In this document: in pieces, positions 17,642 through 36,058 of the stretch
How the letters are laid out: each line of letters starts with the position of its first letter
Position numbering within the stretch: the first letter of the stretch is position 1
From: an uncultured virus (IMG/VR IMGVR_UViG_3300027798_002855)
Taxonomy: Duplodnaviria > Heunggongvirae > Uroviricota > Caudoviricetes
Direction: 5' to 3' (one strand)
IMG/VR virus record: IMGVR_UViG_3300027798_002855
DNA length: 64,000 nt
Notes under the pieces: model-generated
The model's database searches: none
The model's input: only the letters and a program-made list of their open reading frames with translations
Told to the model about the DNA's origin: nothing
Translations under genes and position numbers: made by a program

Positions 17642-18521
17642 TTTGTATCCATTCCATTAATGATACCTTTGGTATCCATCCAGTTAAATCTTTAAACTTG
17701 GCATTAGACGCAAGAGTTTCTTGCACTTCACCAATTCTTGGCGGGATAAATTTAATATCATTTGAAATCATATTAGCAATATCAAGTATAGCGTAGTTGC
17801 TTCCATACCCAATGTTATATACCTCACCAAATCCATTTTCAACTTCAGATGCAAGTATGTTTGCTTCTATTACGTCTGATATATGAGTAAAATCTCTACG
17901 CTGAGATCCATTACCAACTACTGTTAGTGGTTTTGACTCATGATATTGTTTTAAGAATAGTCCTATTACTGGGGCATACTGTCCTTTTAATGGTTGTCTA
18001 TCTCCATAAACATTAAAATATCTAAGAGATATAGTCTTTAATCCGTAAAGGTTATAATAAACTCTTGCAAGGTTTTCACCAAAAACTTTAGCAGCAGAGT
18101 ATGGAGTTAACGGATCAGGCGATTGGGTTTCTTGGTTTGGAAGCAAAGCCTTTTTACCATAAGAAGAAGATGTGCTTGAATAGATTAGCCTATCTACCTT
18201 ATTAACCCTACAAAGTTCAAGAACATTTGCTGTTCCTACTGCGTTTGATTGAATAGATTTTTTAGGATTTAATATTGCTGGCTGTATTCTTGCATCAGAT
18301 GCTACGTGAAATACGCAGTCAACATCTTTAAAAAGTGATGCAATTAAGTCATAGTCACAAATATCATACTTATAGTTTTGTGCCTTATCATTCCAATAGA
18401 ACTGCTCATGACACTCTGCAGACTCATCATCAATACAAACAACGTCGTGACCAAGACTAATTAACTTATCAACAAGGTTTGAACCAATAAAACCAGCACC
18501 ACCAGTTACTAAATATCTCAT
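17634..18521 (-). CDS. NAD-dependent nucleotide-sugar epimerase/dehydratase
   Basis: TGGAGFIGS, YxxxK, LRYFNVYG, RDFTH. Confidence 0.93.
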   Translation of the reverse strand: MRYLVTGGAGFIGSNLVDKLISLGHDVVCIDDESAECHEQFYWNDKAQNYKYDICDYDLIASLFKDVDCVFHVASDARIQPAILNPKKSIQSNAVGTANVLELCRVNKVDRLIYSSTSSSYGKKALLPNQETQSPDPLTPYSAAKVFGENLARVYYNLYGLKTISLRYFNVYGDRQPLKGQYAPVIGLFLKQYHESKPLTVVGNGSQRRDFTHISDVIEANILASEVENGFGEVYNIGYGSNYAILDIANMISNDIKFIPPRIGEVQETLASNAKFKDLTGWIPKVSLMEWIQND

Positions 18522-19477
18522 TGTATGTTTAATGTTTCTAGTATTGTTGCCCACCTGTGTACATATGTGTGCTCTTGTTTAGTTCTTTCATGCCCAGCAA
18601 GTCTTATACTCTCTCTTGAAAGACCATCTACTAGATACTTATCTATCTTGGTTTTTAGATCTTCAAGATTACCATGTTCATAAAATACAATCTCATTGCC
18701 ATCTTCAAAGTATTCTTCAAGTCCTGTAATGCGAGGGTAGATAGTAAAACCACCACGACCAGTACTTTCAAACAATCTATCACTAGTGTAGTAAGGATAG
18801 TTAAAGTTAATATTTAAACTATCACCTATTGCTATTTTGCTTCTTGCATAAATCCGATTTAAAGCATCTCCACGTACAGTTCCAGTATCTCCATCGCCAC
18901 CAACATGACAAAACCTACTGCCGTAAGTGTCTTTTAAAAAATCTATTAGTTGTGGACGGAATGGATACTCTTTGTGATATCTTTTACTTCCCACGAAAAT
19001 AACATCATGATCGTAATACTTTTTATTATAATCTGAATGAAGATAGCACTCTTTGTCATAAACTCCAGCAGGAACAAAATGACCTTTTACTTTTGTATTT
19101 TTGTTAAACCAATCAGTCATTAGCTTGTCTGTAGCAAAGAAATGTTCTATGTTTGTGTAAAAACCATCATCTTTTAAGTCTTTTTGACGCTCAATACCAA
19201 ACCAAAGATCAAGATGATAAGTCATGGTTGGTATGTTAATCATCTTCAATTCTTGTAAAACTTCAATCATGTCAAAGTGTCCAGGGGTTTTCCAGCCATG
19301 GGTGTGTACCCATATGAATAAATCTGATTCTGATGCCTGGTAAAATATCTCTTTACCTGTTGCTTGACGCTCTTGTAATTTTATTACAGTATGACCCAGA
19401 GACTCCAAAGACGCTGCGTGATGATTCTCACTAGAATATGGAACTTCAAAGTTACCAAGAAAAACAATTTTTGCCAA
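18518..19477 (-). CDS. CgeB-like glycosyltransferase
   Basis: DVIFVG, SDRLFE..G.G, HTYVHR; TTG start after GGAGG. Confidence 0.8.
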   Translation of the reverse strand: MAKIVFLGNFEVPYSSENHHAASLESLGHTVIKLQERQATGKEIFYQASESDLFIWVHTHGWKTPGHFDMIEVLQELKMINIPTMTYHLDLWFGIERQKDLKDDGFYTNIEHFFATDKLMTDWFNKNTKVKGHFVPAGVYDKECYLHSDYNKKYYDHDVIFVGSKRYHKEYPFRPQLIDFLKDTYGSRFCHVGGDGDTGTVRGDALNRIYARSKIAIGDSLNINFNYPYYTSDRLFESTGRGGFTIYPRITGLEEYFEDGNEIVFYEHGNLEDLKTKIDKYLVDGLSRESIRLAGHERTKQEHTYVHRWATILETLNIQ

Positions 19478-19531
19478 TTTTATCCTCCACTGTAAATAAT
19501 TATAGCATGATATACTTGTAATAGGGGTAAA

Positions 19532-20224
19532 ATGAATTTTATATATATATGTCGTGGCGGGGAAAACCAAGAACTTAGGTACTCTGTTAGGACAGTTGTT
19601 AATAGTTTTCCAGACTCAGAGATCTGGGTAGTCGGCGGTATACCAAATTGGTACAAAGGTAAAAGTATAAGCATAGAGCAAAATGCTAGTAAATATAATA
19701 ACGCTATAGAAAACCTAAAGGCTATCGTAAAGTCTACAGAAACCCCAGAAGAGTTTGTTTTAATGAATGATGACTTCTTCATTGTAGACAAAATAAATTC
19801 AATAAAACATTATCACGAGGGACCCCTCCTTGATAAAATTGAAAAATACAGGGATTTAAAAATGGATCCTAGTTACGTTCAAAAACTTGGACAGACCTAT
19901 GCCAGATTACAAAGAATGGGCATGGAAGAGCCTGTAAGTTATGAAACTCATACCCCAATGATTATGCTTAAAGATAGGCTTAAAGAGGTTTTACAATATT
20001 GTCCTACTAGCCTTTGGAGATCTCTGTATGGCAACATACATCATGTTGGTGGAGAACAAATAAAAGATGTAAAGGTTTACTATAGAGATAGGTTTGCAAA
20101 AATATCAAATGACTATACTAATTCTGATTTCCCTTTGATGTCTACAGACGATGAATCATTTTTAATAATAAGAGATAGTTTATTAAAAAATAAGTTTAAC
20201 AAGAAAAGTAAATACGAGAAATAA
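19532..20224 (+). CDS. Stealth-like sugar-phosphotransferase
   Basis: ELRYSVRT and LMNDDFF motifs. Confidence 0.6.
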   Translation: MNFIYICRGGENQELRYSVRTVVNSFPDSEIWVVGGIPNWYKGKSISIEQNASKYNNAIENLKAIVKSTETPEEFVLMNDDFFIVDKINSIKHYHEGPLLDKIEKYRDLKMDPSYVQKLGQTYARLQRMGMEEPVSYETHTPMIMLKDRLKEVLQYCPTSLWRSLYGNIHHVGGEQIKDVKVYYRDRFAKISNDYTNSDFPLMSTDDESFLIIRDSLLKNKFNKKSKYEK

Positions 20225-20226
20225 AA

Positions 20227-20913
20227 CTATCTCATAAAATGATAATCGCCATCTGGGCCATTGTCAGAAAACATCCCCATGTTTTTAAATCCTTGTGATG
20301 AAAGATAATCAATGATAACTTCTTTTTCAGGAGATCCAATATTATACTCTACATCTCTTAGTTCTACTATGAGGTGTTCACAAGTTTTTAATGATTCAGT
20401 TGCACCCACAAGGACATCTAGTTCTGCGCCCTGAACATCAATTTTAATAAAGTCTGGCTCTTTAAACATCTCATATTTGACGGTATCATCTAAAGTAATG
20501 GTTGTCATTTCAACTATACTGTTATCATCAAACAAATAATCTGCTGCTGAACTATATTTTGAATTTTCCTTGTAATATGAATTGCCAGCAAAGTTATCAT
20601 TGTTCTGATAAAACTTTATATTTTTGTCAGAAGCATTACTTAAGGCACCAATGCTGTATTGCAATCCGCTTTCAACATAAAGACTTTCAAATGCATCTGT
20701 TGCATCAAACAAAACTATTTCACTCTCAGGCCAGATATCTTGCGCTCTTTGTGTCCAGTGTAAAACACATGCTCCAATATCATAAATTACTTTTGGGTTG
20801 AAGTTGTAATCATATTTTAATTTAAGCAGATATTTAAAATGTTTATCTGGTAGGTTTCTATAGTCGCTAACCTTTTTAATATTATCTAAAATATTTTTAT
20901 TATATTGTTTCAT
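20227..20913 (-). CDS. FkbM-family methyltransferase, second
   Basis: DIGA, IKIDVQGAELDVL.G. Confidence 0.85.
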   Translation of the reverse strand: MKQYNKNILDNIKKVSDYRNLPDKHFKYLLKLKYDYNFNPKVIYDIGACVLHWTQRAQDIWPESEIVLFDATDAFESLYVESGLQYSIGALSNASDKNIKFYQNNDNFAGNSYYKENSKYSSAADYLFDDNSIVEMTTITLDDTVKYEMFKEPDFIKIDVQGAELDVLVGATESLKTCEHLIVELRDVEYNIGSPEKEVIIDYLSSQGFKNMGMFSDNGPDGDYHFMR

Positions 20914-21487
20914 TGTTAATATCATACTTTCCAATTTTATTTAGCCACTGTGCCATAGCCCATGCCTCACGAAACCTTATGTTTGCCATAGTCATACCAT
21001 ACTCTCTACACAACCTTTCAAAATCTTTATAGGTTTTTGGTTTTTTTGTAAAAAGAATCCACATCAAGGCCGACTCTGTTGTTAAAAATGTTTTGCCACC
21101 TTTTATATGAGAAGGTCTTTTAATTACGTTGCACCTTCTGCATCTCAAAGTCATGTTTTCTAAACTGTCTGCTTGATCCCCTAACACTTCTCTCGGAACT
21201 ATGTGATCCGCCTGCAATTCAAGTCGTGTTCCGCAGTCAGCACATTTACCATTTTGATTCTTATGCCATTCATAAACAGCCTGCATGGTTTTTCTTGGTG
21301 GATATTTACTTTGAAAAGTTTTTTTTGATGCTATAGAGGTTCCCACTTGTGATGGATTTAAGTGTCCAAGAACTAAAGCCACAACTTCTTGCATGGTAAC
21401 AAGACCCTCTGTAATTAATTCATTTAATAAATTAATCCAATCTTGTTGAGTCCATTCACGATCACTGTCTGGAAATTTATTTTGCAT
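20900..21487 (-). CDS. HNH endonuclease
   Basis: CADC..DHIVP..N...CRRCN. Confidence 0.8.
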   Translation of the reverse strand: MQNKFPDSDREWTQQDWINLLNELITEGLVTMQEVVALVLGHLNPSQVGTSIASKKTFQSKYPPRKTMQAVYEWHKNQNGKCADCGTRLELQADHIVPREVLGDQADSLENMTLRCRRCNVIKRPSHIKGGKTFLTTESALMWILFTKKPKTYKDFERLCREYGMTMANIRFREAWAMAQWLNKIGKYDINNETI

Positions 21488-21641
21488 TTTTCTTTTCTTC
21501 AACTAATTTTTTAATATTGTTTATTTTAGTATAGGCATCTCCACCAGCATCAAGAAGTATTATAACTTCATCAAACGCTTGCTTACGAGCTTTTTTACAG
21601 CCATTGCAAGGACAAGCCCAATCTTTATTGTTGCTTTCCAA
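21477..21641 (-). CDS. Small Cys-rich protein (54 aa)
   Basis: TTG start, WACPCNGCKKA. Confidence 0.5.
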   Translation of the reverse strand: MESNNKDWACPCNGCKKARKQAFDEVIILLDAGGDAYTKINNIKKLVEEKKNAK

Positions 21642-22425
21642 GGTCTTGTTTTCTTTTAACTTTACCGTCTGCTACGCCAGTCCAATACATATTGTAATAG
21701 TTTACATCAAACGAAAATGTCTTGAGATGCTGAACATGTGCACCAGTATGAGCATATAATTGAATACCAGCCTCTTTTAGTTTTCTAAAGAAAGAAACAT
21801 CTTCGCTAATAAACTTATTTGCTGCTTGTTGATTTTCTCCAAATACAGAAAACTCACCAGCAACTTCACGAACTTTAGGAACAACCGATCTGTGCATCAA
21901 AACAAAACCAAAACCAGCAACATCAACTGGTATTAACTGATTTGTTGGCATAGGATGAATCGTTCTTGTTACATATTTATTGTCTGTATTCATATAAATA
22001 GCAGGAGTTGGCTCCATCAAACTCTGTTCATTTTCTTGGCTAACAAAATAAACTCCAGTAACAACTGGCTTAGAGATTTTATCTGAAGAATCCCATAGCA
22101 ACTTAAATGCACCCATAGTCATAACTATGTCTGAGTCAATCCACATTAACCAATCTGTGTTCATATTGTCATACCAATAGTCAATTAAAGATTGACGCTG
22201 TCTTGCTATTTGATTACCCTGCACACGAATAGTGCTTGCTACCTTGATTCCACTTCTCTGTGCTTCAAGCAGGGTATTTAAAATGCCACTTGCAAACCTA
22301 CCCTCTACAGTGCCACCGTCACACCAAGCAAAGGTAACTGTTTCCTTATCGCTGTGTCCTGATATTGGTTTATCTACAACCTTTTTTGGTTGTGCCTTAC
22401 TAGGCTGCTTTTTTGCCATTGCCAT
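21625..22425 (-). CDS. GT2-like glycosyltransferase
   Basis: WIDSD, GFGFVLMH, SEDVSF, H.K. Confidence 0.8.
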   Translation of the reverse strand: MAMAKKQPSKAQPKKVVDKPISGHSDKETVTFAWCDGGTVEGRFASGILNTLLEAQRSGIKVASTIRVQGNQIARQRQSLIDYWYDNMNTDWLMWIDSDIVMTMGAFKLLWDSSDKISKPVVTGVYFVSQENEQSLMEPTPAIYMNTDNKYVTRTIHPMPTNQLIPVDVAGFGFVLMHRSVVPKVREVAGEFSVFGENQQAANKFISEDVSFFRKLKEAGIQLYAHTGAHVQHLKTFSFDVNYYNMYWTGVADGKVKRKQDLGKQQ

Positions 22426-22528
22426 GCTCCCTTATATGTCTTGCAAGGGTGCTGTGAGCAAAGATGCCCCAACGCACCTCAAGTCCTTTACCGCATTGAT
22501 TGCAGACTGCTACTCTACCCTTGTCCAT
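22400..22528 (-). CDS. C2H2 zinc-finger-like miniprotein (42 aa)
   Basis: CNQC...LARHIREH; TTGACA-17-TATAAT promoter upstream, leaderless. Confidence 0.6.
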   Translation of the reverse strand: MDKGRVAVCNQCGKGLEVRWGIFAHSTLARHIREHGNGKKAA

Positions 22529-22549
22529 GTTTCTATTATATACCAAACA

Positions 22550-22717
22550 TTATTTATTGTCAATCTTAGGTTCTAACTTGTCCCACTTGCCTGCTGCATT
22601 GCCTTGATAGGTTTGTCCAGTTTCTCTGTCTATGAGCAGCCATTTTGTTGGGGATAATGTTTGTACAACTAGAACTACTTCGCTTAAAGTTTCAGGGAAT
22701 TCAAAAGAATCTCTCAT
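22550..22717 (-). CDS. Hypothetical protein (55 aa)
   Basis: MRDSFEFPE...KWLLIDRETGQTY; ATGA-coupled. Confidence 0.55.
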   Translation of the reverse strand: MRDSFEFPETLSEVVLVVQTLSPTKWLLIDRETGQTYQGNAAGKWDKLEPKIDNK

Positions 22718-23478
22718 ATACCATTATCTTCCATATATTTTAATCTTTCCATAATAACATCAGTATTTGGATCAGCCAGGAATTGATCAAGAGCCTCTTT
22801 AACTATTGGGCGCATCTCATCAACTGCAGGGCCACCTTCATTTTCCATATTAGATATATCATAATGATAGGCATCTGAATCCTCTGTAACCCACTTGGCA
22901 GCATCTTCTACATCCCATTTGCGGGTATTGATAAGACGATGTATAACAGGTTTACCAGGCTTAGTAGTAAATGAAGGCTCTAAAACAAAAACACGATTGT
23001 TAGGCTGAATAGCAAAATTACCATCATCACGCTCTATAACATGACCACATTTATGTTGCCCAGGATTTTCTGAATACCCATCATCAAGGCTATTAGAGTC
23101 TCCTCCATACCAGTCAAGGCTAAACAAATACTTGCCAGATATCTTATTCTTACTTCTGTTCAAATAATTCATACGAAGGTTTGCAAGGTTTGAAAATCTG
23201 GTGACGGTAATGAAAGGACTAAAAGAATTCCATAGAACTAGATCATGTATGTCTATCTCTGGAACTCCTGGTTTGGTACAGAAGGCATTAATAGGCATTC
23301 TCCACCAGATACCACCATCTTCCATCATAAAATGAAACAGGGGACTTCGGTTTGGAACACTAGCAACGCCGAAAATTACACAGGGAAAGTATTGATCGTG
23401 ACTATCCTTTTGATCTCGCAAAAAGTTACCACGGATGTAGCATTCAATCGGCGGTATATTAGCATTTAATTCAGGCAT
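22714..23478 (-). CDS. Conserved phage hypothetical protein
   Basis: LNANIP, HKCGH, QPNNR. Confidence 0.75.
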   Translation of the reverse strand: MPELNANIPPIECYIRGNFLRDQKDSHDQYFPCVIFGVASVPNRSPLFHFMMEDGGIWWRMPINAFCTKPGVPEIDIHDLVLWNSFSPFITVTRFSNLANLRMNYLNRSKNKISGKYLFSLDWYGGDSNSLDDGYSENPGQHKCGHVIERDDGNFAIQPNNRVFVLEPSFTTKPGKPVIHRLINTRKWDVEDAAKWVTEDSDAYHYDISNMENEGGPAVDEMRPIVKEALDQFLADPNTDVIMERLKYMEDNGI

Positions 23479-23545
23479 AAGTCAATTCTATCATCTCGGC
23501 GCAATAGATGTATCAAACCACCATTCGCCCCTTTGCAGGGCGCTA

Positions 23546-24980
23546 TGGTTTAATCTTACTATCTGCGTAATCTTGACTAGCCATGTTTACCATTCTGGCT
23601 TTTCCGCAGGGACAGGCAGGAGCCTTATGTATCTTATCCTCATCTAATGTAGTAACAATAGCCATGATGGTTTGACATTCAAGGCATTTAAACATCCATC
23701 TACTTTCTACCACGAGCAACCTCCGCTGCTAATATTCTCATTCCTAAACCATTTATCTGAGACGATGTGCCAAGATCGATTGATTCAATCTCTCTGGCTA
23801 TACGCTCACGCAATTCAGACTCTACGGCCACAATACTATTCCCGATAAGGCTCTGTGTTTGAGATCCGAAGTTCTTAGATACCTCGTTGTAAAAGTGTTT
23901 GCCAATGTCTGTAGTAATATCAAAGTTCATTGTCTTCAAACTCCATGTTGTATACCGTGCCCCATTTGTCATAGATAGGCCAAAGATTATCCCAAATCCA
24001 ACAATCTCTCTTAAATCTAAATCCACTTGTTTTGCCAGTTTCTTCATAGAAGGAAATACGAAGAACAGCTTTTGATGCAAAGTGTCCTGCTAGGTTTGCC
24101 ATCCACCTTAAAGGAGGGCGGGAGTTATCAATTCTAGTAGTCTTCCACTCTGGAACATCATCATCATAACGCATATGCTATTACCCCCAATAGAAATCCT
24201 ATAATAAATGCAGAACATACAAAAGTTGAGATAAATCGTTTTTCAAGCCATCGTTTAATTACGGCTCGTTCTATCTCACGATCCACTTCATAAACCACAT
24301 CATCAACTTTGTATTCTGTCATGACTAGCCTATCTCTTTAATGAGCCTTGCTAGAATATGAGTAGCCTCGTCAATTTCGTGAAGAGAGCCTGAAAAGATC
24401 AGTTCGTGTGCCTTTGTGATTTCTGTCTTTATATATTCGTTAGTAAGTTCCATCAAACCAGTATACCCTAAAAAAGCGGGGGAGTCAAACAAAAACCACT
24501 ATCAAAGTAAGTAAAGGAACAAACCACCATATATGCTTAATCACGTATCTGCCCATATAAGGTATCTGGTTTGTCAGGAATTGTGTTAGGAGTCTCATGA
24601 TCTGAGCATACGGGGTATAGTTTATGGCCAATTGACTTGATACCCTCGGACTTTTTAGAACAGAAATAGCATATGGCCATAAAGGCTTGACCGTTTTTGC
24701 GTATCTTGTCTAAGGCTTCTACAAGTCTCTTATCTTTATACCATTGGGTATGTTGGCTAGGCATATATTCCTCCTAGGAATAAGTATATCAGGCAGGAGG
24801 GTTTTTGTCTATTTCTTCTAATATTTTCTTAGCAAGTTCTTGGGCCTGAATATCTTTGTGTTTGGTTTTGAGATATGGGGATAGAAGGTTTGCTATCAGG
24901 TCTATCATTTCTTGATTCATATCTGGATATTTATTATACATTATTAATGAGCCGTTTTTCTCATACTCAGGAGACTGCAC
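23546..24980 (-). other. Cluster of short hypothetical ORFs (incl. 23700-23930, 23920-24174, 24537-24764)
   Basis: Abutting short minus-strand ORFs, some with CxxC. Confidence 0.55.
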
Positions 24981-25066
24981 TCATTTTTCTGTGGATAGGG
25001 TAGAGGCAAATGTATCAGATCCCTACTTTGTGGTTGTGGTAGATGATGGTTTAACCCATCACCTAT
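24945..25066 (-). ncRNA. Candidate small RNA (5' hairpin, 3' pseudoknot)
   Basis: TGATATACT promoter, stem UAGGUGAUGG/CCAUCAUCUA, pseudoknot at 24948-24974. Confidence 0.4.
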
Positions 25067-25082
25067 CTAATAGTATATCAGA

Positions 25083-25781
25083 TTAGGAATAGTCTTTGCG
25101 TACCCAATGATTTTTTTTATACCAGCCAGAAAATACTGAGCTAGATTTTTTACCATTTAGTATGCCCATTTTAAGAAGACCTTTTGATTCTTTTGATATC
25201 CAAGAATCTTGTTTAAATGGTATTAATTGGGCTACTGGAGTTCCTTGTTCTATAACTCCTTCAAAACCACTTTTAATATAAAAGGGATAAGAACCATGTG
25301 GATTTGTAACATACCCACCGTCTATTATTCCAGAAAGAGTGAAAAATGGAAGATCATGTCTATTAAGTGGATGAGTTAATAAAATACTATATCCTTTTGG
25401 AACTTGAAAAGCAACATTGGTATTCCATGTATATTCTATTGGATAACAGCCTGTTGGGACTAGTGAACTATCAGATACTTCATTTCTAAATCCAGGTGGG
25501 TTGCTCATGGTGCCCCATACAACATATGGCGCTCCGTTGTTATTTTTAACATAAATATCAGATGGCAGCAATAGCATATAGCCACTTGAAAGACCATTTA
25601 AAAATGGAACACATTGTTTTACTGTTAAATTAATGTTATTTTTAGAGTCTATTATTTCTCCATTTTTCCATTTTGGTATTTTTTTATACCAATTGGGTAT
25701 TACATTTTTAGACGGAACAAGTGTGTTTGGATATTCTTCTAGTGCTGATTCATATTTTATAGTTGGTTTTTTCTTAAACAT
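25083..25781 (-). CDS. Hypothetical protein, paralog of 47098-47808 (possible dUTPase-like beta-clip fold)
   Basis: KxCxP, GYS.L..PL, GTPxxQxIP. Confidence 0.75.
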   Translation of the reverse strand: MFKKKPTIKYESALEEYPNTLVPSKNVIPNWYKKIPKWKNGEIIDSKNNINLTVKQCVPFLNGLSSGYMLLLPSDIYVKNNNGAPYVVWGTMSNPPGFRNEVSDSSLVPTGCYPIEYTWNTNVAFQVPKGYSILLTHPLNRHDLPFFTLSGIIDGGYVTNPHGSYPFYIKSGFEGVIEQGTPVAQLIPFKQDSWISKESKGLLKMGILNGKKSSSVFSGWYKKNHWVRKDYS

Positions 25782-25817
25782 GTTTTAATTGTATCAGATA
25801 TGCCTGGATTTGTAAAG

Positions 25818-25826
25818 TTATCCACA
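25818..25826 (+). promoter_or_regulatory. DnaA box
   Basis: Perfect TTATCCACA, intergenic. Confidence 0.5.
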
Positions 25827-26187
25827 AATAAATCTTACTGATAAAAAAATGTTATACCAATGGTGGAGGAAAGTGGAGGGAGGTGGGGGATGGAGCGCTT
25901 TTGCTGAGGGGATCGTAATACCAAACCAAATATCCCAAACCACGTATCCACGATATGGGGCATATGATACACCAGATATAATGGTTTGTCAAGCCCTAAA
26001 TACCGCCCCAAAAATGTGTAGAAATGTAACAAAACTATAACAAAAAGTTATAAAACCTTTTAATAACAAACCAAAATATCTAGAAAAGTTAGAAAATGTT
26101 TTGTCTCTATATATGGGGGGATTAGGAATAGGGATCGTAATCTTTTTTATACCCGCCCCTGCGGGGCCGCCGCCTGCGGCGGGGTAT

Positions 26188-26216
26188 TTGACAAGGATCG
26201 TAATCCCTAGTATACT
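26188..26216 (+). promoter_or_regulatory. Sigma70/SigA-type promoter
   Basis: TTGACA-17 bp-TATACT. Confidence 0.75.
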
Positions 26217-26220
26217 TATA

Positions 26221-26296
26221 GTATTGAATCTGGCCTTGCAGTCATTGATTCAATATTTGGGATCTGGTTACCTTTCTGGCCAGGTCCCAATTTTTA
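26221..26296 (+). ncRNA. Candidate two-hairpin small RNA with terminator
   Basis: Follows the promoter; two long stems with G-U pairs; U-tract; no credible ORF. Confidence 0.55.
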
Positions 26297-26532
26297 TGGT
26301 TTGATATAGTCTAAACTTTCAGCGGGGGCTACGGTTTGAGGGTTCTTAATGTCTTTTTCAAAAAATGGGCGGGGATTCAAAGATACACATCAAACCTAGT
26401 ATAAGAGACATAAGGTTTATATAATACAAGGTTTGGGGATATAAGGTTTGGGATCGTAATGGTTTTTTAAGGTTTGAGATGTCCAGATTGTCTGGTTTGA
26501 TATGATATTACCCGGGGGGCCTAAAAGGATCT

Positions 26533-26802
26533 TTAGGGTTTTTTATCTGCTTTGAAAAGAACCTCGTCTAAATCTTCAAACCCTGTATCCTCAACCTCAA
26601 CGGATGCTAAAAATAAATCAAATGTTTCTGCTACATACTTAGCCCCATCAGGTCTTATATCGCATAGCCCCTCATTAGCAAGATAGGCTAATGGCAAACC
26701 AATATCATTGAACTCAAAGAATTGGTCTGCTTCCTCATCATCTTGATATCTAACATAGAACTCTCCTAGTATTACTATCTTATTAGAAAAGTCTGTCGTC
26801 AT
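26533..26802 (-). CDS. Hypothetical acidic protein
   Basis: NDIGLPLAY. Confidence 0.7.
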   Translation of the reverse strand: MTTDFSNKIVILGEFYVRYQDDEEADQFFEFNDIGLPLAYLANEGLCDIRPDGAKYVAETFDLFLASVEVEDTGFEDLDEVLFKADKKP

Positions 26803-27019
26803 AGTGTCCTCCCTGTTGGTAGTATTCTCTTACTTCTTTATTATACCTTGCCGATTCTAAAATCTCAAGTGCTCTTGAATAAGGCACATAGGGAATAGCG
26901 GTTGCCAAGTAGTAGCCAACTGCCTCTAAGTCTAAAGAAAAATCAGATACGAGTGTAGAAATCTTTTGGGCAACCTTCTCCTCTTTTGTAGGTGTAGCGT
27001 TGCGTTTGATTCTATACAT
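26783..27019 (-). CDS. Hypothetical protein
   Basis: GGAGG RBS before MYRIK. Confidence 0.7.
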   Translation of the reverse strand: MYRIKRNATPTKEEKVAQKISTLVSDFSLDLEAVGYYLATAIPYVPYSRALEILESARYNKEVREYYQQGGHYDDRLF

Positions 27020-27142
27020 AGTTCCTCCCATTGTATCAAATAAGTAGGGAGAGCGCAAGCCCCACACCTGCGCTCTACCCTTATATCACGTGAGGGACCC
27101 CACCCCACGCATTCAGCCTAGGTCACCACTCCAGGCTCTCAG

Positions 27143-27496
27143 TTAAACCTTTAAACTTAAATGATAATTAATAAAACTATCAAACTCATGAATGCCAGTT
27201 TCATCTTCTACAGTCTTATTAATTAAATCAATAGTGATATCTGGATGGTCTCCACCATAGTCCATACCGTGGCCATTACTGGCCCATAGACCAAAACCTG
27301 TCTCCTCTGTCCACTGGTCCCCAATCAGCTGAGACACAATGATACGGGTTGCATAGGATGTGTCATTCCGCCTAGGTTCTGCAGCCTGTAGTGCACGGGC
27401 AAGGTTAACAAATCTATCATAGCCACCCCAATGACTGTATAAATTTACAGATAAGTCTTTATCTTGTTTGATTGTGTAGACGATTCTATCTCCCAC
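27143..27496 (-). CDS. Hypothetical phage early protein
   Basis: MGDR..LYSHWGG. Confidence 0.7.
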   Translation of the reverse strand: MGDRIVYTIKQDKDLSVNLYSHWGGYDRFVNLARALQAAEPRRNDTSYATRIIVSQLIGDQWTEETGFGLWASNGHGMDYGGDHPDITIDLINKTVEDETGIHEFDSFINYHLSLKV

Positions 27497-27822
27497 TATT
27501 CATCATCTCCTACAAATTCGATAACAACTCTAGCAACTCGTCCGTCCTCATTCATTTCAGCATAGACAGGATAGAGCCCGTCGCCATAGCCAGTTGAGAA
27601 CACTACAGCGGTAGCCATACCTAACTCGCCATAGCCTTTTGTTATGGTAGCCTCACAAGCCCCAAGATAACTATACTCTCCTACTTTTTGTTTATGTAGT
27701 TCAAAGTCCTCAGCCTCATCATTCCAAGGCTCCCACTCATCAAGATAGCAAGGGTCGCCTACCATGGCTTGCCCACTATCAACAGAAAAATGTCCAATAA
27801 GGGTCATTTCTTTAGTATCCAT
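27496..27822 (-). CDS. DUF4241-like protein
   Basis: VDSGQ..GDPCY, STGYGDG.YPV. Confidence 0.7.
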   Translation of the reverse strand: MDTKEMTLIGHFSVDSGQAMVGDPCYLDEWEPWNDEAEDFELHKQKVGEYSYLGACEATITKGYGELGMATAVVFSTGYGDGLYPVYAEMNEDGRVARVVIEFVGDDE

Positions 27823-27945
27823 TTCTTTCCTCTCCTTTGGTGTTTATGTCAATTCTATCAAAATCCAGCGGTAATGTCAATTGCTGATAAATCCCTAATA
27901 GATCCAACTGTTGTTTTGCCTTTAATACATCTAATGATTCTATTA

Positions 27946-28197
27946 TCATGTACCGTCCCTTTCTGCGATTGCAAATGACAAGTCATATGTTAGTTTATAT
28001 AGATTTGTATAAGCGTCTAGCATACCTTCACAGTATGTCCTGTTCATTGAATCCATGGCCTCACCTGAGAGCTCTTCTATATCTGCAGCAGCCTCTAATG
28101 AGCGTTCAGCCTCCAGCATAAGATTTTTAAGCTCTCCATGTATGACATCAAGGCCTGATGAGCCCAGGTCAATCTGTTTCTGTAGATTGTCGTTCAT
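27946..28197 (-). CDS. Hypothetical protein
   Basis: ORF track. Confidence 0.65.
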   Translation of the reverse strand: MNDNLQKQIDLGSSGLDVIHGELKNLMLEAERSLEAAADIEELSGEAMDSMNRTYCEGMLDAYTNLYKLTYDLSFAIAERDGT

Positions 28198-28396
28198 CTC
28201 TTTCTCTTTCCTCTCCTATTTGTATAAAGTGACGGGTAGCAATAATCTGCCCACCTAACCAGTTAAACTCAAAATCTAATTCAGCATAGTCTTTAGAATT
28301 CATATCTAATGATTCCATTTGTTCTTTTACATATTCCTGGTCTTGTTCAATACTAACAAGATGTAGCTTCATATATTCTATCAAATAAGAACTCAT
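28169..28396 (-). CDS. Hypothetical protein
   Basis: ORF track. Confidence 0.65.
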   Translation of the reverse strand: MSSYLIEYMKLHLVSIEQDQEYVKEQMESLDMNSKDYAELDFEFNWLGGQIIATRHFIQIGEERERDERQSTETD

Positions 28397-28623
28397 TAGT
28401 CTACCTCAATATAATATTGGTCATCAGGATTCATATTGTAGAATTTATTAAATGCCTGTTTAATTTCTTTAGAATCAGACAATGAAGCAAATTGATAATC
28501 TGCATACAATGTACCCTCATCTAAATTAGAATCCATCCATTCAGTAAATAGATGTTCTGATATTGCTTGTATCTCATAATCAATAACCATTTGGTTAATG
28601 TTTGCTTCCTCTAGGAAACTCAT
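28396..28623 (-). CDS. Hypothetical acidic protein
   Basis: ORF track. Confidence 0.65.
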   Translation of the reverse strand: MSFLEEANINQMVIDYEIQAISEHLFTEWMDSNLDEGTLYADYQFASLSDSKEIKQAFNKFYNMNPDDQYYIEVD

Positions 28624-29369
28624 TTGATTTGGTCCCTTCTGTATTCTGGTAGATGTGCTTCGTCTAAGTATACTTTATGGGTATCACATTCTGCAACTGC
28701 CTCTAGGTCTGCCTCGCCTAGCCAGTTACACGATTCACATATCTGACCACATTCACTCTCACAATAATCTAATGTGTTGGTTGCTTCGCAATCTCTGCAC
28801 ATATTCTCATATCCAGAATCAGAAATCATTTCACCACGCAAGAACTCACACTCACCACCCCAACCTGTCTCTTCCTCATAAGATAAGGTAAAGAGCAATG
28901 TTGGATACTGACTAGATAGTTTAGCAATAGCAGGCATTGGCGGCGACCAAGCGGTATTAAAATTATAATAAACAACTAGATTCTCTCCATTAGGAGTAGG
29001 ACCTTCCATATATGTATCAGGATGTTCATTATCAGAAGATACAGCAATTTCCCATTTAGTTCCCCAGTTGCGGACATTCCATGAATACCAGTCATTGCCT
29101 TTGAACTGCATGGCTTCTTCAATTGGTAATTTATGGTCAGGCTGCCCTGAATACTCATACTCAGTAACACCGTCTTCAATATAGTTATAGATATTATAGA
29201 ATGCAAATACAGGATTTGGATAAGTAGTTAATTTCTTTTCCATTTGTCCAGTCTCCGTGTTCCATGAATCATGGACCATTTTGAATGGTTTATTAAGTTG
29301 TGCTACAAGGTCATTAACCTCTGACGGACTACCTTCTATAGTAAGTCCACTAAATACCCAATTAGGCAT
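28620..29369 (-). CDS. DUF1281/YubB ferredoxin-like-domain protein with C-terminal Cys cluster
   Basis: MPNW, WY.W...WGTKW, F.TAWSPP. Confidence 0.8.
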   Translation of the reverse strand: MPNWVFSGLTIEGSPSEVNDLVAQLNKPFKMVHDSWNTETGQMEKKLTTYPNPVFAFYNIYNYIEDGVTEYEYSGQPDHKLPIEEAMQFKGNDWYSWNVRNWGTKWEIAVSSDNEHPDTYMEGPTPNGENLVVYYNFNTAWSPPMPAIAKLSSQYPTLLFTLSYEEETGWGGECEFLRGEMISDSGYENMCRDCEATNTLDYCESECGQICESCNWLGEADLEAVAECDTHKVYLDEAHLPEYRRDQIK

Positions 29370-29447
29370 GGGGGTCCTTTCTGTTTGTCGTAATACAATT
29401 ATCCCAAAATCAGGGAATTCTGTCAATCTGTCGTAAAGTGATTTTGG

Positions 29448-29930
29448 TCACACCTTTCCCTCTACCCTCGTGGATTGGCATTCCATGCACTTAGGATCTA
29501 TAGGATCGTAGTACTCTTTATAGCCAACATCCTCCAACTCACCTGCGGCAGTATATGTGGCCTCGTTATAGGAATTCTCCATGAATGAGAACCTAGTTAC
29601 ATTATTACAATCTAAACACTTAGGCATCTGCACCCATCTCCCATGGCTCTACTTTATAGTTTGCACATATTTGCTCAATGCAATCTTCAAGTTCGGTAAA
29701 GAATAGGCCACCTTCATTGTCGTCAAAATGACTAATCATGTTGTCAGTTATCTTGAATTCCCATACTATTTTCATTGGACATGTCCTTCTGCTAACAGAC
29801 CTTCAAAGAAGTCCCATACTATTAGTAATTGTTTATAGTTTTGTTCATCCCCTTGGTTTTTGGCAGTATCAATAGCCCAAGTCAAACTATTACCAAATGC
29901 TTGTATATCTTGATATGTATAACCTAACAT
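29448..29930 (-). CDS. Three short coupled ORFs (29772-29930, 29620-29775, 29448-29633 Zn ribbon)
   Basis: Own translation; AGAAAGG RBS and promoter upstream. Confidence 0.6.
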
Positions 29931-30079
29931 AATTACCCTTTCTGTGGTAAATATATTGTAGCAAATTTTGGGGAAAAAATCAAACTATCGTAAAGAATTT
30001 TAGGTAAAAATATCATGGATCCCGGGGGGATTTTAAAAAAATTGAGCAGTTTATACTCTTACTCAGGAGTTGAATTAGA

Positions 30080-31090
30080 TTAAACTAATTCTAAAGTATT
30101 TTTTACAATACCTAGCAGACGATTTTTTTCTGCTGTAATTGTCGCATCAAAACCAGAAGCAGCAGCAAGCAGAGATTCGTTAGAATTACCACGAGCAGAC
30201 CTGTGCCAATCAAGGCGTTCAGTTAGAGCATTGAAAGCACCCCAAGCGGTATTGGCAATCATGCCATTAAACTCGCCTGTGTAAATATCATTGATTAAAT
30301 CAATTTTATTTTCCCACTTCTTTGATGAGCCTTTAGAATCTTTATCAGGCTTAGGATAAGCAGCAAGAACAATATCATTGAACTGTTGCGCTGTGATTTC
30401 TTTTTCAATCATAGCCTTAGCCATAACATCAAAAGAATCCATATAAGCATTAGCAAGACCAAGGGCCTCACGAGCAATTTGGACTTTACCATTAGCGGTC
30501 TGTGTGTGGCGAATCTTGAAAGATTGCTTGATTTTATTCTTCTTAGAACCAAGCGCAAGATTAAGAGTGTTAGCGCATACAACACGCACTGGTGTGATAC
30601 TTGCTTGAATAGCAATAGAGCCATCATGTGATGTATTGATAAGTAAATAAGTTTTTACCTTATCTGCCACACCATTAGGGTCTAATACTGTTTCACGCTC
30701 AAGAGCAAGAGAGCCAAATACAACACGCCCTCCACGAATAGAGCCAGCGGTTTCCCATCTGCCTCCACCATCTAGGATATTATCACCAAATGAGAATAAG
30801 TCCTCATTTTGTAAAACATGATAACGCTCACCAACAACACCTAAAATATCTGTCTGAGAGTTATTTGTAGGATTTGTCCTAACAACATACTGATATTCTT
30901 TATCTGATGATAAAGTATTTGGAATCTCAACATCAACTAATCTAACATTCCAATTATTTAGATTAGCAGCAGCAAGCATTTCTGCTGTGGTTTTTTCATC
31001 TGTGAATACTGTGCCTAGACCATGCCAAGCAGGCTCACGCAATGAAGCAAAAGAAGCAACGCCATTTTGCGTTTCTAACTCATGTGCCAT
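30080..31090 (-). CDS. DUF932 (phage/plasmid-like TIGR03299) protein
   Basis: MAHEL..PAWHGLG, ETAGS..GG, NTSHDGS, TPVRVVCANT. Confidence 0.9.
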   Translation of the reverse strand: MAHELETQNGVASFASLREPAWHGLGTVFTDEKTTAEMLAAANLNNWNVRLVDVEIPNTLSSDKEYQYVVRTNPTNNSQTDILGVVGERYHVLQNEDLFSFGDNILDGGGRWETAGSIRGGRVVFGSLALERETVLDPNGVADKVKTYLLINTSHDGSIAIQASITPVRVVCANTLNLALGSKKNKIKQSFKIRHTQTANGKVQIAREALGLANAYMDSFDVMAKAMIEKEITAQQFNDIVLAAYPKPDKDSKGSSKKWENKIDLINDIYTGEFNGMIANTAWGAFNALTERLDWHRSARGNSNESLLAAASGFDATITAEKNRLLGIVKNTLELV

Positions 31091-31270
31091 TTTTATTTCC
31101 TTTCTATTTGTTTAGACAATCATATCAGGTGGGTCTGACAATGTCAATTCATACTATTAAGAATCTGGGCAAAACGGACATCGTTCTTAAACTTGACAAA
31201 AGATCTTTTTGCCCCCCGGGATTTTGGAGAGCAGTTTTAAGACATGCTCAGGTCTTGGATAGCCCCACTA

Positions 31271-31735
31271 TCACACGTTATAGATATTATCTATCTCAAC
31301 ACCTACTTCTCCGTCATATGAATTTAGTTCAGCATAAACATTTAAGTCAATGTCGCTAACCTCAAAATTAGCAACTTCATCTAACGGAACTAATATTGTT
31401 CCTGTGATTGTGGCGGTAGCCTCAAACTGAATTTCCTTAGTAGGATTAAATCCAAAGATACTACAAATATCAGCAACGATTTCCTCTGAACCCATATCAA
31501 GGTAATCAGGTAGGCGACTTTCTAACAGACCTACTCCCTGAGTATATCTATTAAGTTCTCGTCTTTCTCTGCGGTGTTGATGTAATTCCCACTCAAGGTC
31601 GCTAACCTTTACTGTGGGATACCAATTTGTATAGTCTGTTTGGTGTGCCTCAGAATCAATAATCTTATAGGTCACGATTTGATTTGGGTTGTAGTGGTTT
31701 GGCACTACTATTTCATTAGTTGTTTCTGTATTCAT
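31271..31735 (-). CDS. Hypothetical protein
   Basis: ORF track. Confidence 0.7.
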   Translation of the reverse strand: MNTETTNEIVVPNHYNPNQIVTYKIIDSEAHQTDYTNWYPTVKVSDLEWELHQHRRERRELNRYTQGVGLLESRLPDYLDMGSEEIVADICSIFGFNPTKEIQFEATATITGTILVPLDEVANFEVSDIDLNVYAELNSYDGEVGVEIDNIYNV

Positions 31736-31997
31736 TTAAGAGTTCCTCTCCTACTGTATCCATTTCTTTAATGGTATCCATCATATCGTTTAACTGTTCC
31801 TCTGTCAATAGTGCGTGGGTCACTAAGGTTGTTGTCATAGCAGAGAGCATAGCGGAATAGTTATACATCTCTTTGATAAAACTTTCATCATCTACTTCAT
31901 TTCTGATACTGACAATGTGTTTCACAATTTCCATTATCATGTCATCATGAACTGCGTCTCTTGACGCTTCTTGTAATTTAATAGCGGTTGCTATCAT
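31716..31997 (-). CDS. Hypothetical helical protein
   Basis: AGAAAGG RBS before MIATA. Confidence 0.7.
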   Translation of the reverse strand: MIATAIKLQEASRDAVHDDMIMEIVKHIVSIRNEVDDESFIKEMYNYSAMLSAMTTTLVTHALLTEEQLNDMMDTIKEMDTVGEELLNEYRNN

Positions 31998-32228
31998 GGG
32001 GCGTTCCTTTCTTTTGGTTATACCCAAGTCTATCAAAAATATAGGAAAAATACAAATCGTGTCTTAAACCAGCTATGTGATCATTATCACATTTCCCGGG
32101 GGGCGCAAAAAAAATAAGCAGTTTTAGTTCATGCTTAGGAACTGTATGCCTCGCTATAGCACTGGCAGGGACATTTGGTTGTGGCTGGGGGAATTCCGAT
32201 TACACACCCGAAACCAGCCACAATTCTA

Positions 32229-32396
32229 TTAGTGTGTTTTTACCATAGCAAATCTTGTTTGATTATTTGCCAAGCGCAACATTACTTTAGTGACATTACG
32301 AGTTTGTGGGACAAACTTTTCAATGCGACCTGTAATACCTGTTTTGCTTGTTGTAAATAAATCACCAAGTTGGTATCTGTATCCTCCAAGTGTCAT
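32229..32396 (-). CDS. Small SH3-like beta protein (55 aa, not in track)
   Basis: YQLGDLFTTSKTGITGRIEKFVP; AGAAAGG RBS. Confidence 0.7.
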   Translation of the reverse strand: MTLGGYRYQLGDLFTTSKTGITGRIEKFVPQTRNVTKVMLRLANNQTRFAMVKTH

Positions 32397-32471
32397 TTAC
32401 TTTTCCTTTCTGTTAGGGGTTTTTGTTGAGCAGTTTTAGTTGTCATACTCAGGACATTTAGCGTTTGCTAA

Positions 32472-32891
32472 TTATAGATAACGAGCGATAGCATTATAGG
32501 TGCTAGTGCTAACTACTTCCTCATCTGTCATTTTGAGAATACGAATTGCGTTCTCAATTTCATCTACCATTTCCTTGTATTGCCACTCATTGTAAGTGTC
32601 AAAATCTTTCTGAGGTTCATCAGGTAGAACTATACTTCCACTAGGTAAGTTGAAATCTACATTTATAGTGCCATTGTAGCGAACATTGGCAGATAAATCT
32701 GTTGCCTTGCTTATTTGAGCAAGTGCTAACTTTCCTACTTCTTTGTTGTATTTCTCTTGCGCCTTTGAGAACTTTTCCTCATTGACTTTTTGATTAGCCT
32801 TATCCTTTTGGATTTGGGCTAGTTTTGCTTCTAGAGCCTTTATGACTTTAGTTGTAGCGATTTTTACGCTAATTGCTTTTCCTCTTGACAT
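32472..32891 (-). CDS. Hypothetical coiled-coil protein
   Basis: ORF, own promoter and AGAAAGG RBS. Confidence 0.75.
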   Translation of the reverse strand: MSRGKAISVKIATTKVIKALEAKLAQIQKDKANQKVNEEKFSKAQEKYNKEVGKLALAQISKATDLSANVRYNGTINVDFNLPSGSIVLPDEPQKDFDTYNEWQYKEMVDEIENAIRILKMTDEEVVSTSTYNAIARYL

Positions 32892-32977
32892 AATTACCTT
32901 TCTGTGTAATTTATTGGTGGGCTATTATTTTAGCATTTTTAGGTGGGATAGTCAATTTGGCTACCCCACCCATTTGA

Positions 32978-33142
32978 CTACTTAGATTTCCAAGTTGTCC
33001 AACGAGTTGCGCCATTTACATCAAGTTTAACGCGAACTGTGTCCTTGTTGGTTGGCACGATTTCCTTGATAACACCTGTCACCTTAGACTTCTGTGAGGT
33101 GTAAGTGTCGCCGACCTTGTAAGTTGCTACTGCTACTGACAT
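32978..33142 (-). CDS. Small SH3-like beta protein (54 aa), paralog of 32229-32396
   Basis: YKVGDTYTSQKSKVTGVIKEIVP; AAGGAG RBS; TTGACA promoter. Confidence 0.7.
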   Translation of the reverse strand: MSVAVATYKVGDTYTSQKSKVTGVIKEIVPTNKDTVRVKLDVNGATRWTTWKSK

Positions 33143-33386
33143 TGTTTCTCCTTTGTTAGTTGTTTTTTCATTACTGTATTATTATCGCATTTTTGGTATT
33201 TATTGTCAAGTCCTATACCCTAAAAATCTCATTATTTGAGATTTGTGAGGTAAGTCACTAATTGCCCATTCCCGAAAAAACTAGCAGTAGGCATGTGACT
33301 CCTAAGATTATTAGTAATTCCACGATTCCCCTTTCTGTCCTTGATTTTATCATTTTGCGGGGGTATTGGTCAAGTCCCCCTAGATC

Positions 33387-34106
33387 CTACTTCTTCTTAG
33401 CAGAGAAAACTATATTAGCCTTGTTATCAATACATAGAGAGCAGACTACGCAAGCAGAGCCCTCTTTAGATATTAGTGGAATAGCCTTTTTATTTTCAGG
33501 GCATTTAGCTCCAGGCTTACCTATCATCTCTTTCATATCTGCCTGACCAATTGCGAAGGTATCAGCAAGGTATGCTAATTTAACTCCAGTATCTTTATTT
33601 AATTTAATAGCAATTTTTTTATTCTCGCTATCTGTGGAATAGTATAGAGATAGATTATCAATACCCTTAAGAATATTGACCGCAGAGGCTACTCTTGTAT
33701 ATACCCAAAACTTTATATCAGAATTATTAAGGATGATATGCTTCCAGGCGAAGGCATAAGTATCATTGAAAAAGTCTCCGTCCCAATGGATACGAAATAA
33801 TTTAGGAGCATTGCGCTTATCACAATCAGCCTTAAAATCATTTATCATATCTTGCAATAGGTCTTCCATAGTATCGTGGTCAGCGTCTTTTAATAAATTC
33901 CAATTATGAATTAGGTTTTCTCTTACGCCTTTATATACTCTTTCAAGTTTTCCTGCGTAGCAAACACTTTCACAAACACTAGTGGCACCAGGGCACGAGT
34001 AAGCCTTGCCAGCAGGCAGTCCAAAAGTGTTGGCGATTGTTGCGGTTTTTCCATTGGGTGATACGGCATTAGCGACCTTTCTATCGTTAGAGCGTTTTAG
34101 TTTCAT
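33387..34106 (-). CDS. Gp88-like (radical-SAM-related) phage protein
   Basis: FGLPA..SCPGA..C...CYA, FRIHWDGDF, YTR. Confidence 0.8.
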   Translation of the reverse strand: MKLKRSNDRKVANAVSPNGKTATIANTFGLPAGKAYSCPGATSVCESVCYAGKLERVYKGVRENLIHNWNLLKDADHDTMEDLLQDMINDFKADCDKRNAPKLFRIHWDGDFFNDTYAFAWKHIILNNSDIKFWVYTRVASAVNILKGIDNLSLYYSTDSENKKIAIKLNKDTGVKLAYLADTFAIGQADMKEMIGKPGAKCPENKKAIPLISKEGSACVVCSLCIDNKANIVFSAKKK

Positions 34107-34141
34107 AGGGGTCCTTTCTTACTTCCTAGAATAACATTTTT

Positions 34142-34270
34142 TTAATCTTTTGTCAATTTTTTATGCTTGGTTTTGCGGGAATAAATTTTCTTGTTCCTTA
34201 ATGGCGTGGCAGCAGAAGACCTACGTAATTCCATTAATCTACGTAATTCTTCTCTAGGTTTTTTCCACAT
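34142..34270 (-). CDS. Small basic protein (42 aa)
   Basis: ELRRSSAA.P..NKK.YSRK.KH; leaderless. Confidence 0.55.
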   Translation of the reverse strand: MWKKPREELRRLMELRRSSAATPLRNKKIYSRKTKHKKLTKD

Positions 34271-34334
34271 AAAATAATCTTATCATAAAAATATCATAAA
34301 AGCAAATCGGACAAATCGGGCGCCCCGGGGGCTT

Positions 34335-35299
34335 TTATTCTAAAATATACAATTCAAATTTTTCATTATCAAAAATTTCAACATCTTCTTTTTCATCAAA
34401 CTCATTATCAATGACAAGAGCGAACCCATCTTTAGTTGGAGTAATTGAAATAATTTTTACAATACCAATAATGCCTAAACCAATTAGATCTCCTACTTCT
34501 AATTGGTCAGCATTAAGAATATCTACAAATCTGTAATCCATAGAAATTAGTGTATCAGACATTTATTTACCTGATACCCTTCCGTCACGATAAAAAATCT
34601 TAGTAATCATTTTACCTGATGGCTCTGAAAAATTGTAGGTTGCGTATTCATTAGCAAATCCCCAATCCTTTATTTTATCCCACTCGCCAACTGCGCTAAT
34701 TGCGTCAGAATAACGACCAACCCAATAAGGGGCTTTATCGTTATCATAGGTTGCGGTAATTGCGTATAAGTATTCCATTTTAGTATTCCCTTTCAATAAG
34801 CCACGCATTTAGGTGGTGTTGCTCAATAATAGCCCAAGCAGGGGCGGTAGTCAAACCCTTATAGGTTATTCCTTCAGGCATAGGTATTTCTAAATCCCAA
34901 AGTCCAGCGTCATTAACTGCGTCTATGGCTTCAACGCAAGGAGCAACCATAGAGCGGGGAACGGGCGGGTAATGATTAGCAGATAGGTGAATTGCTATCT
35001 GACTTTCAATTTCAAGATTATCAGCAAGGGCTAAATCGTGAGCAAAAATACTTCCCATTTTAGTTAGCCTCTCTACTAGCAAAGATACTGAGATTATAGA
35101 AATCTTTAATTAGTTCAGGCTCGCTTAGCAAACCATTATCCCAAATTACATCTCCGTCATCATCTAAGATTAGTTCATAGGGATTACACTCGCAAACCTC
35201 AAAATCAAAATCCTCGCCAATTCCCCAATACAAATTACCTTTACCCTCGCAAGCATTACAATTGCGAATTGTGTTTAACGCGTATTCTACTTTATCCAT
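34335..35299 (-). CDS. Operon of four short hypothetical ORFs (35060-35299, 34780-35058, 34563-34778, 34335-34562)
   Basis: Abutting ORFs; the first has CNAC.G.G..CEC. Confidence 0.65.
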
Positions 35300-35394
35300 T
35301 TTTCTTTCCTTCTTTCTGTTTAATACTGTAAGCCTATCAGATAGGGCTGACATTTCCAAATCTGCCACGCCCTGTCCGATATGTCCGTTTTGTC

Positions 35395-35892: not shown

Positions 35893-35893
35893 T

Positions 35894-36058
35894 TTACTGT
35901 TCCTTCTTTCCAAAAACATTTTCCATTATATTTAAGTTTTCCTCTGTTAGAAAACTCTGTGCGCTTCCCCATAAGCCATAAATATAGTTATCACCATATT
36001 TTTCTTTAGCTAATTTTTCAATATTAGCAATTCTTTCCATTTTTTCAATAACTGTCAT
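35894..36058 (-). CDS. Hypothetical protein (54 aa)
   Basis: AGAAAGG RBS; YGLWGSA. Confidence 0.55.
   Translation of the reverse strand: MTVIEKMERIANIEKLAKEKYGDNYIYGLWGSAQSFLTEENLNIMENVFGKKEQ

Follow-up and report, generated by a model that had tools for sequence, protein, structure and literature searches.

What is known of the timing of gene expression in lytic phages mostly concerns transcription, together with a few protein repressors and nucleases acting on ribosome-binding sites (RBSs). In phage T4, RegA is a translational repressor and RegB a nuclease cutting GGAG within early Shine-Dalgarno (SD) sites. The sar RNA of P22 and the oop RNA of lambda are phage RNAs of ~70-77 nt encoded in control regions, each having its own promoter and an intrinsic terminator. 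On the side of the bacterial host, RNAIII, with its hairpins 7, 13 and 14, and RsaE/RoxS possess C-rich loops, including a terminator loop, which pair with the SD sequences of many mRNAs. The c4 RNA acts on one operon via two matched sites and is cut from a longer transcript. As an immunity RNA of the phages P1 and P7, it is described in a review as carrying loops complementary to the ribosome-binding region of a phage mRNA, thereby blocking translation (PMC12197685). Here, we analysed a locus of an uncultured phage which invites comparison with these systems, i.e. a putative small transcription unit within a stretch of DNA of 64,000 nucleotides, which as a whole is referred to as the window.

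The unit is located on the + strand at 26188-26296, within a 750-bp gap (25782-26532) between two minus-strand genes. It starts with the predicted promoter P1 (26188-26216), composed of TTGACA (26188-26193), a 17-nt spacer and TATACT (26211-26216), i.e. near-consensus -35 and -10 elements separated by the 17 +/- 1 nt that define sigma-70-type promoters. With 11 of 12 positions matching the consensus, P1 is the sole + strand site of this quality within 20000-39500, in agreement with the initial annotation, which had proposed a consensus promoter driving a small RNA with two stems and a U-tract. Both stems and the U-tract were recovered as well. Hairpin 1 (26221-26256, +) consists of 14 pairs with a 2-nt bulge and the loop CUUGCA; it is directly followed by hairpin 2 (26257-26290, +), which has 14 bp, six of them G-C and three G.U, and the 6-nt loop CCUUUC, and by TTTTT (26291-26295, +) immediately 3' of the stem, together resulting in the anatomy of an intrinsic terminator. 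Among the 20 terminator-like sites in 20000-39500, hairpin 2 has the longest stem, and the minus strand shows no T-run at the terminator. P1 and the terminator (26257-26295) would thereby form a self-contained unit producing a structured + strand RNA of ~72-75 nt. We calculated a minimum free energy of -33.7 kcal/mol for the RNA 26220-26296 (77 nt; z = -6.15), and none of 200 shuffled sequences folded equally well. The minus strand reaches -22.5 kcal/mol, i.e. its fold is ~11 kcal/mol weaker, with five G.U pairs turning into A.C mismatches, suggesting that selection on the structure acts on the + strand.

A + strand ORF overlapping the unit (26101-26304) is non-coding, being disrupted in relatives by a deletion of 11 nt and insertions of 1-2 nt, and no ORF frame across 26188-26296 is kept among the relatives. 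The small ORFs opposite the RNA, of interest for the idea of a type I toxin-antitoxin system, are only 8-9 codons long. No minus-strand gene lies opposite the RNA, the nearest ones ending at 26533 and starting at 25781; in contrast to sar and oop, which are both cis-antisense to a coding gene, nothing coding faces the RNA here. In Rfam, no match was obtained in 26100-26400 even at E-values up to 10, and the three weak matches found over 24000-28000 all lie outside this interval. Among the contigs of four RNA-library runs, one of 128 nt spans 26241-26365 across the terminator, carrying neither strand nor end information, and the RNA-library contigs on the region have a low, even depth of ~3-8, for which carry-over of DNA is a possible source. 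Taken as a whole, 26188-26296 has the appearance of a genuine small transcription unit, strand-specific and under selection, from which a discrete small RNA is probably transcribed.

The proposed targets of this RNA reside in a minus-strand block (27958-37531). AGAAAGG occurs 18 times in the window, and 13 of these sites are positioned 5-12 nt before the start of an ORF of at least 40 aa. All 13 RBSs fall into the block (first bases at 37531, 37220, 36887, 36074, 34119, 34082, 32903, 32411, 32012, 31105, 29943, 29382 and 27964) and none elsewhere, as compared to GGAGG with no site in the block and 13 elsewhere, GGGGG with none and 10, and AAGGAG with two and seven, respectively. Judging from this placement, AGAAAGG is a class-specific ribosome-binding motif. 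Eight of the 13 sites fall 8-23 nt after a promoter-like -10 element, suggesting short leaders, and many of the block's genes are individually preceded by a TTGACA-17-TAnnnT promoter and a short leader. The distribution upholds the earlier view of AGAAAGG as an early-gene RBS and of GGAG-type sites as being set apart, GGAGG and GGGGG occurring outside the AGAAAGG block only; leaderless-looking starts, also predicted, do exist. The statement that most early genes use AGAAAGG has to be lowered to about a third to half of them (11 of the 25 crude gene calls in the block), and the proposed extension to AGAAAGG(U) did not hold, as T follows the heptamer in only four of the 13 sites, next to A in seven and G in two.

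Across relatives, the exact heptamer is present in 40 of 96 early-block gene calls of four RNA-bearing contigs (11/25, 11/24, 8/19 and 10/28) versus 0 of 92 in six RNA-free contigs, the gene calls being rough and the orthology of some RNA-free stretches being assumed. In the RNA-free contigs, orthologues read AGAAAGA, AGAAAGC or GAAAGGA. At orthologous starts, the heptamer is exact though the flanks differ; a RegB-like protein reading AGAAAGG would be an alternative reason for this strictness. The co-occurrence of RNA and heptamer is suggestive and represents at most one or a few events instead of independent replication, because the RNA-bearing contigs belong to one clade in which the identity of the early block to the window amounts to 99.9% for L078, 85.8% for L077 and 73.8% for L076.

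The initial annotation had described an exposed 8-nt apex complementary to AGAAAGG. The complementarity was confirmed, the apex ACCUUUCU (26270-26277, +; ACCTTTCT at these positions) being the complement of AGAAAGGU. The full exposure was not: the flanking A and U of the 8-mer form the closing pair, so that only the loop CCUUUC (26271-26276) is truly unpaired, its six bases showing unpaired probabilities of 0.98-1.00. Opening the apex costs 0.0 kcal/mol for 6 nt, 1.1 kcal/mol for the 8 nt of ACCUUUCU and 4.5 kcal/mol for the 12 nt of UUACCUUUCUGG. It had been conceded that the loop match could be due to chance, and this is borne out only in part. Anti-SD hexamers are found at the apex of five of the 1173 hairpins with stems of at least 7 bp in the window, i.e. 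there is no overall enrichment. The observation to be explained is an 8-mer which, at the apex of the one strong terminator, exactly complements the RBS heptamer most common in the block, and for this exact match we estimate chance as unlikely, at ~1% or less when allowing for the ~20 terminator-like sites.

The accessible seed is complementary to all 13 sites over 7-11 nt, with the contiguous match spanning 7 nt at five sites, 8 nt at another five and reaching 9, 10 and 11 nt at the three others, respectively. No complement elsewhere in the window is longer than CAGAAAGGTAA, whose 11 nt coincide with the ribosome-binding site 32894-32904; three unrelated 11-mers match the RNA equally well, which is about the level expected by chance, and no complement of at least 12 nt exists in the window. 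At the base after the heptamer the RNA offers A, and the 16S tail presumably offers U; the bases found there fit the tail better than the RNA, suggesting that the sites are tuned to the ribosome and not to the RNA. The pairing between RNA and sites is no better than the ribosome's own pairing. As only the terminal part of the tail is copied, the apex could tell AGAAAGG from GGAGG-type sites. Its one seed, CCUUUC(U), which corresponds to the very 3' end of the 16S tail, distinguishes the phage RNA from RNAIII and RsaE/RoxS, with which it has pyrimidine-rich hairpin loops and short seeds in common; these are host RNAs with UCCC or CCCC seeds, usually more than one, and show no sequence or Rfam relation to the phage RNA. 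With c4, the unit shares being a phage RNA of similar size with loop sequence complementary to an RBS. It differs from c4 by having its own promoter and terminator, a single matching loop instead of two loops for two sites in one leader, and 13 dispersed sites sharing the heptamer alone, and no two-site target or target of at least 12 nt is present in the window. By sequence or defining anatomy, the unit belongs to none of the systems compared. A scan of cellular genomes with a 20-mer containing the apex returned 22 matches, all in unrelated sequence without sRNA flanks, most of which share one conserved, presumably coding context; the scan gave no clue to the host and no cellular origin.

Exact-pattern scans uncovered the unit in four IMG/VR contigs and 14 metagenome contigs, resulting, together with the window, in 19 copies representing six haplotypes; the metagenome scan, whose anchor fixed 11 nt of the 5' arm of hairpin 2, had yielded 17 loci, of which L083, L088 and L090 were dropped as chance matches upon inspection. 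Variable columns are frequent in the upstream flank (82 of 193) and in the downstream flank (216 of 258) and become rare in between. A GC-rich hairpin region (26143-26184, +), which lies directly 5' of the promoter and belongs to the conserved island, has 10 of 42, the promoter segment (26185-26219) has 4 of 35, hairpin 1 has 6 of 37 and hairpin 2 has only 2 of 34, both of which are changes in L019 at the 3' end. L019, which belongs to the L076 lineage, differs from the window at only two positions in the 111 nt comprising GC hairpins, promoter and hairpin 2, with the GC-rich hairpin region being unchanged. A non-coding island of ~150 nt is thus ~95-100% identical where the neighbouring coding block is 74-86% identical. 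At the level of sequence, the identity of the module despite the divergence of the block is strong evidence for either constraint or a recent exchange. The module occurs with flanks of three types, and these are mosaic. Hairpin 1 shows three one-sided, pair-preserving changes and no compensatory one, and no pair with changes on both sides was found among the 19 copies. The apex is invariant in 19 of 19 copies; because the stem of hairpin 2, part of it fixed by the search anchor, is equally invariant, the conservation of the loop is inseparable from lack of divergence.

The RNA is absent from 15 more distant relatives, in which the flanking protein is 42-60% identical and the gap is built alike, with a homologous promoter; their equivalent transcripts are unstructured (z from -1.5 to +1.8). 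The model R1, built from five copies, detected no homologue among these 15 loci, nor anywhere along 11 contigs of relatives (G006-G016), its residual matches of at most 21 bits being chance hairpins from the stem-only pattern. The latter pattern matched 22 loci, i.e. the four known contigs and 18 unrelated ones, and the hairpin-1 pattern 24 loci, comprising the four known contigs and again unrelated ones. The RNA is carried by a lineage of freshwater phages that resemble those of actinobacteria. The genome has 33-41% GC and no tRNA genes, its ribonucleotide reductase shares 61% identity with the enzyme of Actinomycetia phage DSL-LC01 and 60.6% with its counterpart in Mycobacterium phage Gaia, 382 of the 393 phage records matched by a GP88-family early protein belong to Mycobacterium or Streptomyces phages, and the sequencing runs containing this DNA are by label mostly freshwater, sediment or drinking-water metagenomes. 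A search of phage records with the region gave no match, and both the nearest record, G001, and phage DSL-LC01 lack it.

We propose a model according to which the RNA masks AGAAAGG ribosome-binding sites, which is the mechanism we rank first and nonetheless put forward as tentative. The RNA, specific to one phage lineage, seems to have emerged out of local repeats, next to a duplicate of an older promoter. In the cell, the AGAAAGG SD motif would be bound by the terminator tip CCUUUC, whose pairing could extend through the weak A-U and G.U pairs closing the loop, resulting in lowered translation of the short-leader genes in the 27.9-37.5 kb block, and host mRNAs sharing AGAAAGG would perhaps be repressed too. 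Genes led by GGAGG, AAGGAG or GGGGG, or leaderless genes, would escape as there is no complementarity. GGATCGTAAT in the P1 spacer may place synthesis of the RNA under the control of a DNA-binding protein. The switch to late genes suggested by the initial annotation is not evident: P1 matches the consensus shared by many of the block's minus-strand promoters, so that the RNA would be made alongside its proposed targets, unless the GGATCGTAAT site imposes timing. The closest functional analogue of such a mechanism is T4 RegA/RegB, where an early mRNA class is likewise shut off via its RBSs, by proteins there and by an RNA as proposed here. A wider version, which we regard as unlikely, assumes that two SD classes use separate parts of the 16S tail, AGAAAGG pairing with the terminal CCUUUCU and GGAGG/AAGGAG with the core; an RNA copying the terminal part would then turn down the short-leader early class, and core-SD and leaderless genes would continue.

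The small RNA could also be real and its loop match incidental, with the apex being inherited from an older local CTTTCTGG terminator motif and the RNA acting via hairpin 1, a bound protein, a host target or in some other role, an explanation that we consider possible while doubting it. The CTTTCTGG core is found in three of the 15 distant relatives without the RNA; at the homologous place it occurs twice in L017, which has a further copy in a downstream terminator, and once in L016, and L011 and L012 bear the variants GTTTCTGG and CTTCCTGG there, all four being devoid of the RNA and of the exact AGAAAGG heptamer. In the contig of L012, where the element of the relatives reads CTTCCT, 3.8 kb of early block were inspected for a compensating change of RBS motif and showed mixed motifs. 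As the 5' arm of hairpin 2, moreover, resembles the local repeat GGTTTGGGATC, the hairpin may have grown around inherited sequence. An incidental match is further favoured by the RBSs fitting the 16S tail, as we take it to be, better than the RNA, and by a conservation covering the whole module beyond the apex. It accounts less readily for an 8-mer that exactly complements the commonest RBS heptamer within the only fully exposed stretch of the strongest terminator, for the co-occurrence of RNA and exact heptamer, and for the lack of any other extended target within the window. If the unit had no function at all, consensus-like motifs and a palindrome would have arisen in a repeat-rich spacer and spread recently by recombination. 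Recent transfer could indeed also yield 19 nearly identical copies in mosaic flanks, and the number of promoter-like sites in 24500-27500 corresponds to that in shuffled sequence (12 versus 11.5). The two differences in 111 nt of L019 next to a coding neighbour of 74% identity, the presence of the module in three flank types and the z score of the fold render this improbable. Still less credit is given to a cis-antisense RNA directed against minus-strand read-through from the gene 26533-26802, which would separate two expression blocks by cleavage or by interference from the convergent promoter: P1 points against minus-strand transcription entering the gap, in which no terminator-like site was detected on the minus strand, and the AGAAAGG block and GGAGG-led genes are on opposite sides of the region, but there is no coding sequence opposite, the downstream gene has two promoters of its own, one with a leaderless start, a minus-strand terminator would be simpler, and the 15 distant relatives do without the RNA. 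An RNA mimic of a CRISPR repeat was considered as well.

What matters might also be the DNA and its transcription instead of the RNA, in that the gap is a control region, possibly an origin, with P1 as one of its regulated promoters and a terminator that just stops P1 before the convergent gene, the act of transcription or the binding of proteins (RNA polymerase, the factor recognizing GGATCGTAAT) being the relevant event. This, too, is conceivable to us, if hardly probable, and it draws on the repeats of the gap. Four exact direct copies of GGATCGTAAT (25910-25919, 26132-26141, 26195-26204 and 26451-26460), all on the + strand, lie in the gap and none elsewhere in the 64-kb window, the third one being in the P1 spacer. 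Allowing one mismatch, eight matches were counted versus 2.45 expected, and the TCGTAAT core recurs ~4-7 times in the homologous gap of distant relatives. GGATCGTAAT is probably the site of a sequence-specific DNA-binding protein and may serve as an operator. Inverted CAAACC/GGTTTG repeat arms surround an AT-rich centre of the gap, AAGGTTTG occurs 16 times in the window versus 3.4 expected, with three occurrences in the gap, a DnaA-box-like TTATCCACA is located at 25818 (L016 has three), and downstream there is a paralogous second copy of the P1 region, with CCTAGTATA at 26206 and 26395. The GC hairpins and the promoter are as strongly conserved as the RNA. A plain stop of transcription, however, needs no two hairpins totalling 28 pairs with G.U pairs favouring one strand by 11 kcal/mol, and the equivalent transcripts of the relatives show no such structure. 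As a replication origin the gap was set aside, the support being thin with a single DnaA-box-like site here and a cluster of such sites elsewhere at 36184-36204.

Should the RNA indeed mask AGAAAGG sites, one small RNA silencing a gene class via its class-specific SD motif would constitute a new and simple layer of phage timing, and different parts of the 16S tail could serve as separate regulatory channels; the reading with two SD classes would then describe an RNA counterpart of T4 RegA/RegB. Among the papers listed by full-text literature searches, none showed a phage RNA directed against a gene-class-specific SD motif, which is no proof of absence. Independent of the mechanism, two observations stand, i.e. 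the sharp division of RBS motifs between gene blocks and the non-coding island of ~150 nt, whose identity exceeds that of the neighbouring genes.

Several further features were observed in and around the gap. A second + strand unit (26365-26547) contains a paralogue of the P1 upstream and -10 region and several AAGGTTT(G) repeats, followed by a short hairpin with a T-run that reaches into the stop codon of the convergent gene. Distant relatives have one such unit only, which is its homologue, and as RNA it is unstructured (z +0.5). A purine-rich tract at 25862-25890, containing GGAGG three times on the + strand, is conserved in those distant relatives that were inspected but is not a conserved ORF. 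Its minus strand is a pyrimidine tract like the anti-SD core, situated in a leader from the promoter 25992-25964, and might be the matching element for the core-SD class; the minus-strand leader folds into no structure (z -0.2). The gene 25083-25781 looks leaderless, as it starts only 6 nt after a TG-extended TACAAT -10 element (25779-25816, -), and in the relatives L120 and L121 many starts have TATAAT 6-10 nt before ATG. A related strain seems to be devoid of the 232-aa gene, as one RNA-library contig joins 25080 to 25830; in distant relatives this gene is found ~1.7 kb away from the gap, and its nearest phage homologues are from tailed viruses of haloarchaea (28-34% identity). Farther away, the DnaA-box-like TTATCCACA occurs three times in 35786-36204 (-), including a pair at 36184-36204 separated by 3 nt, and this area is a better candidate for a DnaA-related site than the gap. 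Finally, 14287-23478 (-) comprises a sugar-modification run, as judged by PHROG matches, with three glycosyltransferase-like genes, a nucleotide-sugar epimerase, a methyltransferase and a ferredoxin-like gene.
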